Source: a virus. Taken from it: a DNA stretch of 64,000 nt. The DNA lies in IMG/VR virus record IMGVR_UViG_3300023184_000083, positions 13,725 to 77,724 of that record; one strand, 5' to 3'. Below the pieces are notes generated by a model, which had not been told where the DNA came from, ran no database searches, and saw only the letters and a list, made by a program, of their open reading frames with translations. Made by a program: the position numbers and the translations under genes. Of this stretch, positions 5,019 to 29,618 are shown piece after piece. Numbering within the stretch: position 1 is the first letter of the stretch; each line of letters begins with the position of its first letter.

Positions 5019-5354
5019 ATGACCGTTAATAACAATACCCAGAAAAAAGTTGCCCAACCAGAAGGATTACTGGATATACCCAAAAAGGACTGGTTTGACC
5101 ACGCAGCATGCAAAGGAAAGACCCTACTAATGTTCCCCAAAGAACATAAGGATATTACCTACATCGCACAGGCAAGAGCCATCTGCAAAGGATGCCCAGT
5201 AAGAGACCACTGTTTAGAGTACGCATTAGAGTTTCCACCTGCAGATATGCATGGAGTATGGGCAGGGCTTACATCAAGACAACTAGCCGCAGAGCAAAGA
5301 CGTAGGGGAGTTAAGCCAGTAAGGCCAACCCTTAGTCAACTGTGGAGTATCTAG
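5019..5354 (+). CDS. whiB: WhiB-family Fe-S transcription factor
   Basis: AACKG...ICKGCPVRDHC...GVWAG. Confidence 0.9.
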   Translation: MTVNNNTQKKVAQPEGLLDIPKKDWFDHAACKGKTLLMFPKEHKDITYIAQARAICKGCPVRDHCLEYALEFPPADMHGVWAGLTSRQLAAEQRRRGVKPVRPTLSQLWSI

Positions 5355-22224: not shown

Positions 22225-22257
22225 TTTTCCACAACCTGTGGATAATTCTGTGGATAA
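22225..22257. promoter_or_regulatory. three DnaA boxes
   Basis: TTTTCCACA 22225, TGTGGATAA 22237 and 22249 (12-bp period). Confidence 0.7.
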
Positions 22258-22662: not shown

Positions 22663-23043
22663 ATGACGCCTGCCGAGTGTCGCTCTCGTTTGTTTGGCTA
22701 TGTCCTAGCGAACCATAGGTACGGAGACTTCCACCCATCTCGTGTGTTTGTAGAGTTAGCCCTCATTGCTGGAGAGAACGCCTTTGACGACTCTGACCTC
22801 ATCATGGAGTTCGTTGACGGGGCTCTCGCCGGCTATAACCCCAACACTGTTGTCGTAGACCCACCCTCTCTCATGGCTGGCTTTGACGCACTTCACCAAG
22901 ACGCTTGGCTTGCTGGTCTAGCATGGGGCGAGAAGAAGGACTCCGAACAACACGAGTGGGATAAGTTGCCCACCTACGATGAGTTCCGTGAATGGTTAAA
23001 CTCTCCGTTTGACGAGGAAGAAGAAGAACTTGAAATGCTGTGA
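22663..23043 (+). CDS. acidic hypothetical protein
   Basis: 126-aa ORF; GGGGG RBS. Confidence 0.55.
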   Translation: MTPAECRSRLFGYVLANHRYGDFHPSRVFVELALIAGENAFDDSDLIMEFVDGALAGYNPNTVVVDPPSLMAGFDALHQDAWLAGLAWGEKKDSEQHEWDKLPTYDEFREWLNSPFDEEEEELEML

Positions 23044-23446
23044 TAACTGCGGGGTTGAAGCCCCGGACTCCCAACAACAGGGAGGCTATATTGACTACGG
23101 CTGGTCGTTGAACTGGCTTGCACTCGGTCACTACGGTGGTTTTACGGACTGTGTTCCCGAACGAGACTACGAAGTAGATAGTCCTCGTTACCTCGCTCAT
23201 CTCTGTCACGACTGCTGTATTAAACTCCTGAACGTGCTGCCGGGACTCGCAAAGTTGATTTTCCCACAAGAAGGTGGGGGTCACCCGAACATCAACGAAC
23301 ACGATGCAGACGATGGAACCTTGACTCCACCCTGCTGTCAGTGGGCGTGGACGTGGAAACGTAGCCCCGCTGGCGCACCGAACGCTGGTCAGTACGAGAC
23401 ATACTTTGCTACGGCTGATGGTGGCTGGAAAAAAATTAACGACTAA
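23030..23446 (+). CDS. Cys-rich hypothetical protein
   Basis: CDNCG...LCHDC; GAGGA upstream. Confidence 0.55.
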   Translation: MKCCDNCGVEAPDSQQQGGYIDYGWSLNWLALGHYGGFTDCVPERDYEVDSPRYLAHLCHDCCIKLLNVLPGLAKLIFPQEGGGHPNINEHDADDGTLTPPCCQWAWTWKRSPAGAPNAGQYETYFATADGGWKKIND

Positions 23447-23484
23447 GGGTTGTCATTACCCTTAATAACGGATAGTCTGAAGGT

Positions 23485-23706
23485 ATGAGTGAATACGAAA
23501 TACCAGAAATGCCCGACTACTGCCATTGTAGTAGCAACGGAGAGTGCGCCTACTGCCTCTCCCAAGACGAACTAGAACTAAAGGTTTCCTTCCATGTTCA
23601 GAACGCAGGAAAAGAAGTGCTGTTCACAGGGTCGCTTGCGCAGTGTAGAGCCTTCATGGAGAAGAACGAAATTGCCCGTAGAGAGTTGCTGTGGGTTAAA
23701 CAGTAA
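23485..23706 (+). CDS. hypothetical protein (leaderless)
   Basis: ATG at +1 of promoter; terminator follows. Confidence 0.6.
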   Translation: MSEYEIPEMPDYCHCSSNGECAYCLSQDELELKVSFHVQNAGKEVLFTGSLAQCRAFMEKNEIARRELLWVKQ

Positions 23707-23718
23707 CGTCACAAGAAT

Positions 23719-23746
23719 TACCCCTGCCTTCGGGTGGGGGTTTTTT
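23719..23746 (+). terminator. intrinsic terminator
   Basis: ACCCCTGCC-TTCG-GGTGGGGGT + T6. Confidence 0.75.
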
Positions 23747-23757
23747 ATTGCCCGAAC

Positions 23758-24021
23758 TCAGTCCGCCGCGGGACTGCCGGAAGAACGACGTATCTTCATT
23801 ACTTGACTGTAGACAGACATCATGGCATCGTTGAGTTCTTTGTTGTTGTCAGAAGCAACGAACTTCATGTCGGCTCTTGTCCAACACGTGACGTTCCAAC
23901 GCCCCGCTTGCCGGAGTATTTCAAAGTCAAGGTTCATTAGGTCAAACCACTTCGTAAACTGGGCGATGTCGTTCCCTGATGTGGCGAGTTTCTTTTCTTC
24001 TGTTCCCCAAGATGATGGCAT
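23758..24021 (-). CDS. hypothetical protein
   Basis: Convergent ORF; start uncertain. Confidence 0.45.
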   Translation of the reverse strand: MPSSWGTEEKKLATSGNDIAQFTKWFDLMNLDFEILRQAGRWNVTCWTRADMKFVASDNNKELNDAMMSVYSQVMKIRRSSGSPAAD

Positions 24022-24116
24022 GCTTTTACTGTAGTGCATCGGGACCCCTGGCCGGCCGCACAAACAAACCAAACATGCAGGTTGTGATAAGCCCTAATAA
24101 GGGATAGAGTGTAAGT

Positions 24117-24324
24117 ATCGGTAAAGGACACCGAGTGGAAACCAAAGACTGAGTAATCTCCTAAGGCAACTCGGCGATTGGGAGTGCCACAAATATGCAG
24201 AGAAGCCCTACCTGCTGGATTGTTTCACGACTAATAACCTCGTTCTTCTCTCAGAGCGTCAATGGTGAATCACAGAGAACTAGAACCCCATCACAGTCTG
24301 GCGATTGTGTTGGGGTTCTTTTTT
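24117..24324 (+). ncRNA. candidate structured small RNA (~208 nt)
   Basis: Full early promoter (-35 at 24082, -10 at 24105) with no ATG at +1; several stems; ends in AGAACCCCA..TGGGGTTCT + T6 terminator. Confidence 0.55.
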
Positions 24325-24536
24325 GTCCCCTACCGGCCGCAGCCCCGTCGTTGTCTTCTTGGGTCTAGTTTTTCATAGCCTTTCCGCCACCGTCACTGCT
24401 TCAGGAAACAACAACACTCCGCTGCGGCGGGGCTAGGGGCCCCAGACTGAGAGTCAGGATTTGGGTGGCAGGAAAGAAGATTTATTTCTTTCATTTTGAC
24501 GTTGTAATAACGACTAATAATGGATAGATTGAAGAT

Positions 24537-24851
24537 ATGAACATTTCACTTGACAACGAAAACCTAAAGATAGATGGTCGTGTGGTTGCAAAAATAACCT
24601 CAAAGGCTTCATTTATCCTTCTTCGTGACACACTCCTAAAAACACTCCCACCAACCGAGGCTGTTTATTTGGCTCTCGCAATGATGGGAGAGTCTCGCAC
24701 GACAGACATTGCTGACTTTACTGGACAGGATAAGTCAAACTGCCTTCGTCGCTTGGCTGAGTTGGAAGAAGCGGGGCGCATTGTGCTCACAGATAACGCT
24801 TACAACAACGGACTTCGTGGTCGCCCAACCCGTATGTGGGCAGTCGCCTAG
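24537..24851 (+). CDS. winged-helix DNA-binding protein (leaderless)
   Basis: RTTDIADFTGQDKSNCLRRLAELEEAG...GRP...W. Confidence 0.7.
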   Translation: MNISLDNENLKIDGRVVAKITSKASFILLRDTLLKTLPPTEAVYLALAMMGESRTTDIADFTGQDKSNCLRRLAELEEAGRIVLTDNAYNNGLRGRPTRMWAVA

Positions 24852-25029
24852 AGTCGTTCTCCCTCTTGTGTTGAGGTATCATCTTGGTACAACGACACGA
24901 GAGGGTAGTTATGACTAAGAAAGACGACGACGGGGCTGACAAGAAGCAAGAAAAGCCCAAGAAGCAGGAAAGACCACGCTTCGTCCAACGAGTTTGGGGA
25001 AGTAATAAATGCTGTGGGAGACCACCCGT

Positions 25030-25275
25030 ATGATAGTCCCCATCTTTGTTCTGAACCGCATCCCCGAGACAACCTCTTTGTGGGTGTGTCAGAACTGCGA
25101 AGACTACTGGTGGGAGTCCCGAGATTGCGAAGTATGCAACGCAACGGGTGAACTGGTTGCTTCTCCAAAACAAACTGTCGGTTGCAACATGGGCGATATG
25201 TTCGGGGCTGATTTCTTGTTCCACAAGCAAATGAACAGACACATCAAGAAAAACATACTGTGGGCACCTTGGTAA
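25030..25275 (+). CDS. Zn-ribbon protein
   Basis: CQNC...CEVCNATG. Confidence 0.5.
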   Translation: MIVPIFVLNRIPETTSLWVCQNCEDYWWESRDCEVCNATGELVASPKQTVGCNMGDMFGADFLFHKQMNRHIKKNILWAPW

Positions 25276-25331
25276 AAAATCTTTTTTTGTCAGAGGTTGT
25301 CATTGTTCTTTATTAAGGATAGATTGAAGAT

Positions 25332-25616
25332 ATGAAAATACTTACAGACGACGATATGGAAGTTGTAGCCAACGCTAACGATGGCTTCGGTTCCTTATTC
25401 ATCACACTCGCTGGTCTAATGGATAGACTCGGCATTAAGACACTAAAGTCAGCCCTCACCTATTTGCCTGAAGAAATTGCAGGCGATGTAGAGATGGATA
25501 AAGCACTAAAGTGGGTTCGCTGGGCTATGGGTCAAAAAGGCGATTGCCCAACTCCTGAAATTGGAACGGCTTGTCATCACTTTCTTGCTGTAGGATTGCT
25601 TGAGGAAACAGAATAA
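25332..25616 (+). CDS. hypothetical protein (leaderless)
   Basis: ATG at +1 of promoter. Confidence 0.65.
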   Translation: MKILTDDDMEVVANANDGFGSLFITLAGLMDRLGIKTLKSALTYLPEEIAGDVEMDKALKWVRWAMGQKGDCPTPEIGTACHHFLAVGLLEETE

Positions 25617-25915
25617 TGGTCGGCAAAAACGCACCCAACTTTGACCCACAGCCAATGATGGATAGGCTCACACAGCCGATGTCATTTGACGAGTGGATTG
25701 TCATCGGCATGAACAGCGGTTGGTGTAGCCCACCGTTGTGTGAAACCCACGACGGGGTCCCGCAAACTAAAGCCGAAGAAGAGCAGTGGGAAGAAGGTGG
25801 CGACCCATGTATTCATGTGATTCGCCTGTTTGACTCACCCGAAGATAAGGCTGAGGCAGAAGAGGGTCACTCACCCTCGCAGTGGCGCAACCATTGGAAG
25901 CAGTCAGATGTCTGA
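25616..25915 (+). CDS. conserved actinophage-type protein (GWC.PP.C.THDG.P..E..G.DPC.H..RL)
   Basis: Motif pattern; coupled. Confidence 0.65.
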   Translation: MVGKNAPNFDPQPMMDRLTQPMSFDEWIVIGMNSGWCSPPLCETHDGVPQTKAEEEQWEEGGDPCIHVIRLFDSPEDKAEAEEGHSPSQWRNHWKQSDV

Positions 25916-26096
25916 GCACTCATACTTTCGTGCAGACTTAGAGAACGACATGAAGTTCCTCGTCGGTGCTGGGCTCATAGAAGTCGCCGGCATTGACGAA
26001 GACGGGGACTGGCTGTACCAGCCGACTGCTAAAGGAAAAGCAATGTCACTAGAAATGATGCAACAAATGATTGAAGCCTCTGGGGAAGAAGAATGA
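25908..26096 (+). CDS. small wHTH-wing-like protein
   Basis: GLIEVAGIDEDG.WLY..T.KG. Confidence 0.55.
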   Translation: MSEHSYFRADLENDMKFLVGAGLIEVAGIDEDGDWLYQPTAKGKAMSLEMMQQMIEASGEEE

Positions 26097-29584: not shown

Positions 29585-29618
29585 CGAACATACGTTCTGT
29601 TGATAAATCTGTGGATAA
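29585..29618. promoter_or_regulatory. LexA-type SOS box + two DnaA boxes
   Basis: CGAAC-ATAC-GTTCT; TGTTGATAA 29598; TGTGGATAA 29610. Confidence 0.65.

Follow-up and report, generated by a model that had tools for sequence, protein, structure and literature searches.

Small stable RNAs with transcription signals of their own are found in several phages, among them the species 1 and 2 RNAs of T4, the CI RNA of P4 and the oop RNA of lambda. The oop and CI RNAs are antisense or processing-derived, and the T4 RNAs lie in tRNA clusters. Small RNAs (sRNAs) with promoter-to-terminator anatomy are also known from phages. In Listeria, SreA and SreB are examples of transcription-terminating riboswitches with a trans-acting terminated product. 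Another group of abundant and stable regulatory RNAs, 6S and Ms1, binds RNA polymerase and acts by shape. Almost all that is known of the phages infecting the abundant low-GC actinobacteria of fresh water comes from metagenomes.

Here we describe an RNA gene of one freshwater phage which, on the strength of its homologues, is very probably a real structured non-coding RNA (ncRNA) gene. It is well supported that the RNA and its relatives form a previously undescribed family of phage-encoded structured RNAs. An earlier note on the same DNA had read the locus as an early-promoter-driven, terminator-bounded structured RNA with a possible pseudoknot; the core of this reading is upheld by the homologues, by covariation and by the failure of every coding frame, while the pseudoknot proposed there is not.

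The phage and its early promoters

The window, that is the whole stretch of 64,000 nucleotides analysed, makes up the final 64 kb of a linear viral record of 77.7 kb with G+C content of 46% and completeness of about 49% (CheckV); complete related genomes measure 128-145 kb. DNA of the phage is present in lake and freshwater metagenomes among public runs, and no RNA run containing the sequence is listed among them. Two matches to the WhiB family lie above the Pfam cut-off (PF02467) in the record:

5091-5282, + strand, WhiB-family gene (PF02467)
36473-36685, + strand, WhiB-family gene (PF02467)

The capsid shares 48% identity with its counterparts in Gordonia and Brevibacterium phages, and the nearest relatives of the SNF2 helicase belong to Arthrobacter phages. 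The assignment to actinophages follows from the two encoded WhiB proteins; with these genes and a capsid related to known actinophages, the phage is, judging by its gene content, a freshwater actinophage.

A conserved sigma-70-type promoter recurs in the phage. With the consensus GGTTGTCATT-N4-CTAATAA-N-GGATAG-N8, a strict pattern gives 15 matches in the window against 0 expected, and a looser pattern yields about 25 copies. In most of them an ATG stands exactly 7 nt past the -10 box, a spacing which implies that the mRNAs started there are leaderless; the ATG falls exactly at the predicted +1 in about two thirds of the early promoter copies. Such mostly leaderless early mRNAs fit an actinobacterial host. 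The copies comprise:

17504, 18067, 19162, 22274, 24500 and 29633, + strand, examples of promoters with ATG at +1 (pattern scan)
14147, 13444, 12394 and 32017, - strand, examples of promoters with ATG at +1 (pattern scan)
36003, - strand, promoter with ATG within 3 nt of +1 (one case)
16629, 20020, 21582, 26728 and 27293, + strand, promoters with SD-led ATG or GTG downstream
16481, 15265 and 11851, - strand, promoters with SD-led ATG or GTG downstream
24082-24110, + strand, early promoter of the RNA (-35 TTGTGA at 24082-24087, 17-nt spacer, -10 TAGAGT at 24105-24110)

The last of these had been singled out in the earlier note as the only copy followed by neither an ATG at +1 nor a gene led by a ribosome-binding site, and inspection of all about 25 copies agrees: the 24082 copy is the sole one without a gene and has ATC at +1 (24117). 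Its spacer holds the family core CTAATAA-GGA, and a sigma-70 scan gives it the same geometry as other copies.

Transcript, homologues and fold of the RNA

The unit driven by this promoter was expected to be closed by a strong terminator about 208 nt further on, and a hairpin with 17-nt arms and a run of six T is indeed found there:

24117-24324, + strand, predicted transcript of about 205-208 nt, from A24117 to the U-tract
24282-24324, + strand, intrinsic terminator (17-nt arms 24282-24298 and 24303-24319, 88% complementary, then TTTTTT)

Transcription should start at A24117, the place taken by the A of the ATG in leaderless genes, and is predicted to end at the 24282-24324 terminator. The homologues described below are preceded by five differing promoter sequences (TTGCAA...TAGAGT, ...TACGAT, ...TAAAGT and, in L094, TTGACA-N17-TAATGT among them), all of which keep the A of AUC at a distance of 6 nt from the -10 box, with the RNA starting as AUCGG or AUCAG. 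This constant spacing across differing promoters argues for the predicted 5' end. At the other end, relatives carry after the same core either a hairpin of the window type or an unrelated GAGCCUCAGCC-UUCG-GGUUGGGGUUC hairpin. The record contains a single copy of the RNA gene.

Homologues were sought in 80 related IMG/VR loci, fetched using the helicase 3.4 kb downstream as query (1312 helicase homologues were counted), by blastn, nhmmer, three DNA patterns and a covariance model (CM R1), which scores the RNA of the window at 167.9 bits (24117-24279). Eleven further contigs, viral or from metagenomes, carry the RNA and represent about seven independent sequence types. Full-length copies are present in L001, L011, L081/L082, L020, L006, L031, L014, L200, L002 and L094/L095, the last pair carrying a divergent form that reaches 77-80 bits with CM R1; L187 holds a fragment at the contig end, and two further variants, X6 and X7, about 93% identical, come from contigs of two lake-metagenome runs. 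Scanning of metagenomes by pattern returned one contig, L200, and a scan with a pattern of the 5' domain returned only contigs already known. Pattern TCGGNAAAGGACACCGAG gave five chance matches besides the true ones, and pattern ATGGTGANTCACANNGNA was too loose. The one match of a genome pattern scan, in a Terracidiphilus MAG, is unrecognised by the covariance model and was rejected as chance.

Five large related genomes lack the RNA, and the phage collection of GenBank holds no DNA match to 23000-26000. Among the 4227 families of Rfam 15, searched at gathering score over the whole window, only two tRNAs are matched. The Infernal search of the RNA itself, advised in the earlier note, matches it to no family even at E<=10: four chance-level matches fall within 24000-24540, none over the RNA core, the best of them scoring 15.6 bits where 58 is the gathering score. 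In the literature we found no description of the RNA. It is so far confined to one group of freshwater WhiB-encoding actinophages.

The MFE z-score of the RNA region (-2.3) is modest when taken alone, and support for structure therefore comes from the comparison of homologues. The predicted elements, all on the same strand, are:

24118-24134, + strand, P1, 5'-terminal hairpin UCGGU/ACCGA with loop AAAGGAC, in all homologues
24135-24190, + strand, 5' domain (P2, P3, G24147-C24175, P4)
24135-24138 with 24187-24190, + strand, P2, GUGG/CCAC (G-C to U-A in L094/L095)
24142-24145 with 24178-24181, + strand, P3, CCAA/UUGG (UUGG has an alternative partner in PK2)
24149-24153 with 24170-24174, + strand, P4, CUGAG/CUCGG
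24197-24215, + strand, P5, hairpin GCAG/CUGC with conserved loop AGAAGCCCUAC (G-C to A-U in L094/L095; G-U variants)
24221-24272, + strand, P6, UGUUUCAC (24221-24228) with GUGAAUCA (24265-24272), enclosing J6/7, P7 and J7/6
24241-24258, + strand, P7, hairpin CGUUC/GAGCG with 8-nt loop UUCUCUCA, 100% of cells paired
24246-24279, + strand, PK1, P7 loop UUCUCU (24246-24251) with 3' tail AGAGAA (24274-24279)
24178-24234, + strand, PK2 (possible), UUGG (24178-24181) with CUAA of J6/7 (24231-24234)

Pairs were counted on the alignment of the covariance model, in whose fitting PK1 and PK2 had no part. In the nine helices, 96.9% of cells hold standard pairs, compared with 38-45% (about 42%) when partners are slid by 1-3 columns. 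Changes on both sides affect 11 of the 42 pairs, against 0-3 in the slid controls, and none of 500 shuffles reached the covariation score. The covariation rests on about seven independent sequence types, with P1, P2, P5 and PK2 each resting on one lineage. Collection of homologues with a covariation analysis had been named in the earlier note as a check, and it yields compensatory changes above both slid and shuffled controls, as expected of a structured ncRNA, across these about seven independent types.

P1 leaves just 1 nt free at the 5' end of the RNA, and its pair 4-16 is changed from G-C to A-U in L094/L095. P2, P3 and P4 together form a long irregular hairpin. Within this domain pair 32-60 turns from GC to CG in L002, and the loop of P4 measures 16 nt in the window and 6 nt in L002, most relatives having a GCAA tetraloop instead. 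In the 3' part, pair 161-207 of P6 changes from U-A to C-G in 7 of 11 rows, relatives and the X6/X7 variants have G-U or A-U where P6 of the window has its U-U mismatch, and two pairs of P7 are altered on both sides (AU/CG/GC). Substitutions in the two metagenome variants all fall in unpaired bases or yield G-U or repaired pairs, as does C24215T of X7, by which a P5 pair becomes G-U. Many invariant bases sit in loops and junctions. No likeness to a K-turn, a T-box or an anticodon arm is seen by eye; the P5 loop weakly resembles CR-I of RNase P.

A 5' hairpin much like P1 (UCGG...CCGA) also occurs elsewhere in the phage, in the SD-led mRNA from the minus-strand promoter 15265, which starts AUCGGAUUUACUAUCACCGAAAG. 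P1 may be one instance of a general means of stabilising 5' ends in this phage.

The clearest helix is PK1, which the comparison makes a well-supported pseudoknot: its strands read UUCUCU/AGAGAA, UUCCUU/AAGGAA or CCCCU/AGGGG in different lineages, with three pairs altered on both sides. In PK2, 100% of cells are paired, the J6/7 partner reading CCAA, CCGA, CCGG or CCAG in relatives; it shows one compensatory change (U-A to C-G in L082) and three wobble variants, in few sequences. PK2 competes with P3 and is possibly the favoured pairing, given the change in L082 and the finding that L094/L095 hold GAUUGG in a hairpin loop with no CCAA partner. Their competition could reflect a switch.

Two of the pairings listed in the earlier note, TCGGT/ACCGA and CTGAGT/ACTCGG, reappear as P1 and P4 (CTGAG/CTCGG) and are kept in homologues. 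A third, TTCTCT/AGAGAA, is conserved as PK1, where the AGAGAA partner is the 3' copy at 24274-24279. For GAGAAG/CTTCTC no covariation was found, as relatives retain GAGAAG yet read CTTCCT. The pseudoknot suggested between CTCCTAA and TTGGGAG finds no support either: CTCCTAA lies within a 12-nt insertion that only the window, L001 and the two close variants from metagenomes share, and both PK1 and PK2 differ from the suggested pairing.

Cassette context and possible roles

In the window and in L001, the RNA cassette follows a reversed 93-aa ORF and precedes a wHTH gene; in L006, L011, L014, L020, L031 and L002 it lies about 0.8 kb before the helicase and follows another gene. Genes downstream of the cassette differ among phages and have leaderless promoters of their own. 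This variable position, together with the differing downstream genes and their own promoters, argues against both a cis-regulatory leader and cis-antisense control. Among 82 loci, proteins encoded within 10 kb on either side of the RNA show no co-occurrence with it; the sole perfect co-occurrence is a spurious ORF inside the RNA.

The 93-aa ORF (23758-24039, - strand) is preceded by an SD-like AGGGG and is opposed to the surrounding rightward early genes. Its homologues stay reversed (74% identity in L001, about 44% in L006, L014 and L031), it has no PHROG match, and its promoter would need to overlap the promoter region of the RNA. Cis-antisense control of this ORF was considered and rejected, since in L006, L014, L020 and L031 some 3 kb separate its homologue from the RNA.

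The unit of promoter, RNA and terminator is flanked by a direct repeat: the 9-mer CCGGCCGCA is found at 24052-24060 and at 24333-24341, 281 nt apart, embedded in cccctggCCGGCCGCA and cccctaCCGGCCGCA. Insertion of the cassette, or recombination, may have left this repeat behind.

In relatives, other small RNAs fill the equivalent slot between promoter and terminator, always followed by the repeat TTCCGCCACCGT...:

L016:9440-9545, short form, 5' domain only
L007:9400-9495 (L007-9), RNA form of about 95 nt
L010/L021 and L012 (L012:9060-9225), RNA forms of about 165 nt
L013/L015, yet another RNA, about 150 nt

The RNAs of L007-9, L010/L021 and L012 have in common a closing helix GGUGG...CCAC and a UUUCCGCUAACGGGAAAUGGGAAA hairpin, the latter carried also by L002 besides its type-A core. 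Modules common to the cassette RNAs of relatives are the GGUGG..CCAC helix, GGACACCGA, AAGCCCU and the UUUCCGCUAACGGGAAA hairpin. Rfam has no match for the cassette RNA of L012 and none for five related loci.

The repeat that closes the cassette lies outside the RNA gene as its neighbour:

24380-24410, + strand, copy of the intergenic repeat cctTTCCGCCACCGTCrCyrCTTsAGrAAAC

This repeat of about 30 nt has eleven copies, on the + strand only (6873, 7370, 8357, 9362, 12815, 16499, 18813, 22130, 24382, 26609 and 29489); it closes each early cassette, is conserved in related phages and is often followed 15-30 nt on by a GC hairpin of CCCCGGGGCT type. In the rightward early region, 118-144 nt separate it from the early promoter that follows, and in the leftward region two copies are located just upstream of minus-strand start codons. 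From the exchange of RNAs in one slot we infer modular, swappable cassettes with an accessory and fast-evolving function, a pattern that, by analogy, resembles accessory loci of host take-over or counter-defence.

We propose that host RNA polymerase would transcribe the RNA early, from one copy of the repeated sigma-70-type promoter. P1 and the terminator hairpin would seal both its ends, which suggests a stable RNA, and the 5' domain (P2-P4) and the 3' domain (P5-P7) would be tied together by PK1 and possibly also by PK2. The gene would be an accessory, movable cassette consisting of promoter, RNA and terminator. Working in trans, its folded product would bind a protein of host or phage, or else a small ligand, by virtue of its shape while the host is taken over; long antisense pairing, coding or control of a downstream gene would play no part. 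A protein or small-ligand partner recognising shape is suggested by the compact pseudoknotted fold with its invariant loop and junction bases, and a role in take-over or counter-defence by the early promoter class and the accessory distribution. As a whole, a stand-alone structured early ncRNA gene of about 205 nt acting in trans by shape is the best explanation and a moderately probable one; its central part, that the RNA is a trans-acting, shape-dependent binder, we consider evenly balanced. More tentatively, the RNA may found a new class of compact, doubly pseudoknotted actinophage RNAs, serving as protein- or ligand-binding decoy or aptamer for take-over or counter-defence or being catalytic, and held in a swappable slot of alternative small RNAs built from shared modules.

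Among the alternatives, a base-pairing sRNA stands up best, and is still unlikely. The P1 loop AAAGGAC, the P5 loop or GGAUUG of J5/6 would then be a seed for host mRNAs or for a stable RNA of the host, in agreement with the promoter-to-terminator anatomy, with the conserved single-stranded stretches and with the established existence of phage sRNAs of such kind. Within the phage genome, however, complementary 10-12-mers occur at chance number only, and the RNA does not pair with the repeated neighbouring motif, the duplex energy with the adjacent TTCCGCCACCGT repeat being within the range of shuffles. Its size and double pseudoknot well exceed the needs of a seed-type sRNA, and Actinobacteria, to our knowledge, lack Hfq and ProQ.

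About 160 nt long, pseudoknotted and rich in invariant junction bases, the domain that ends 3 nt before the terminator is aptamer-like in its anatomy, and the RNA might be a cis-acting leader (riboswitch or attenuator) in which a ligand decides between a stop at 24282-24324 and read-through, or a riboswitch whose terminated form acts as an sRNA. We regard this as improbable. The downstream gene differs between phages, so that the conserved class of regulated genes typical of riboswitches is missing, and it has its own promoter; since it is leaderless, a read-through transcript would offer it no SD. Two unrelated terminator hairpins follow the same core with no conserved antiterminator pairing seen by eye, complements to P4 being only 6-7 nt long by eye and not conserved in register, and no known riboswitch family is matched.

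An RNA associated with replication, acting as a primer or regulating an origin close by, is less probable still. Genes for the helicase, DUF932 and AAA_25 lie 3-12 kb downstream of the cassette, in what is a region of replication genes, and relatives carry TGTGGATAA repeats between the cassette and the next promoter. Such boxes, however, also stand upstream of other early promoters (22225-57, 29598-618 and 44897-918), with none beside the RNA in the window; cumulative GC skew turns near 16 kb and not at 24 kb, the position of the cassette varies, and the terminator ends the RNA before any such element.

As an observation in its own right, these DnaA-box-like TGTGGATAA sequences form pairs or triplets directly upstream of some early promoters (22225-22257, 29598-29618 and 44897-44918, and L016:9690-9730), and 27 sites with at most one mismatch were counted against 14.5 expected. 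This suggests regulation of promoters by DnaA or a phage factor, rather than a single origin.

That the RNA is an mRNA for a small protein is highly improbable. Two frames come into consideration, a 57-codon ATG frame (24195-24368), put forward in the earlier note as an alternative, and a GUG mini-ORF of five codons after the SD-like AAAGGA. The ATG is conserved in type-A homologues, with the 57-codon frame open in most, and AAAGGA-N6/7-GUG has good SD spacing. L002 nevertheless reads ATG TAG, L094/L095 are without the ATG, and a 1-nt indel between the window type and the L020 type shifts the frame past codon 13; the invariant block AATGGTGAxTCACA is translated as NGES in some homologues and as MVSH in others. 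The longer frame crosses the terminator to variable ends, with ORF lengths from 1 to 88 aa. The peptide of the mini-ORF is unconserved (METKD here, MAPKRRV in L002, no peptide in L094), and the mini-ORF is made up of bases that form strands of P1 and P2. No frame is kept open and in register among homologues, and conservation of a codon pattern is not borne out. With ATG TAG in L002 and one-base indels placing invariant bases in differing frames, coding is excluded as far as sequence comparison can tell, and the RNA is predicted to be non-coding.

No more credible is a mimic or decoy of the early promoter, the speculative role suggested in the earlier note, sequestering RNA polymerase in the manner of 6S or capturing a factor that binds the upstream half: RNA and promoter have the 11-mer ACGACTAATAA in common (24510-24520 in the latter), but the match is restricted to the window, homologues reading CGACCAAACAU or CGACCGAAAAC, the conserved part of the promoter-like letters is the 5' strand of the covarying helix P6 with the rest in J6/7, and the RNA has neither a 6S family match nor a rod with central bubble. 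The likeness of TTGTTTCACGACTAATAAC to the promoter, pointed out earlier, is likewise peculiar to the window (relatives have CACGACCAAACA or CACGACCGAAAA), its conserved part being a P6 strand.

The preferred reading is a structured RNA acting in trans by its shape. The gene is well delimited, combines a complex fold and comparative support with the promoter class of early leaderless genes, and its product is small enough for direct biochemistry. Should the RNA bind a host factor or ligand, it would present an RNA-based tool of take-over or counter-defence in a lineage without sRNA biology of the Hfq type; the different small RNAs in the cassettes of relatives hint at a diversifying RNA locus.

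Comparison with known RNAs

Action by shape, as in 6S and Ms1, would fit phage take-over in an actinobacterial host. The long rod with a central bubble resembling an open promoter, by which these RNAs are recognised, is replaced here by a multi-helix fold with pseudoknots, and neither the 6S nor the Ms1 model of Rfam gives a match over the RNA.

With SreA and SreB the RNA has in common a pseudoknotted, junction-rich domain and an intrinsic terminator directly after it. It differs from them in having no conserved regulated gene, no conserved antiterminator seen by eye and no match to a known aptamer class.

Like the T4 species 1 and 2, P4 CI and lambda oop RNAs, it is a predicted short early non-coding transcript extending from promoter to terminator. 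Unlike them, it has no antisense target that we could find in the phage genome, and its fold is pseudoknotted and composed of two domains.

The last group to be compared are orphan structured ncRNA candidates that comparative genomics has brought to light in phage and metagenome sequence, such as the Freshwater-1 and Freshwater-2 motifs of Rfam or the larger ROOL and GOLLD. The RNA matches none of the 4227 families of Rfam 15 and is much smaller than ROOL or GOLLD. It shares with these candidates its occurrence in uncultured viral and metagenome sequence only, its covarying helices and pseudoknots, and the possession of its own promoter and terminator.
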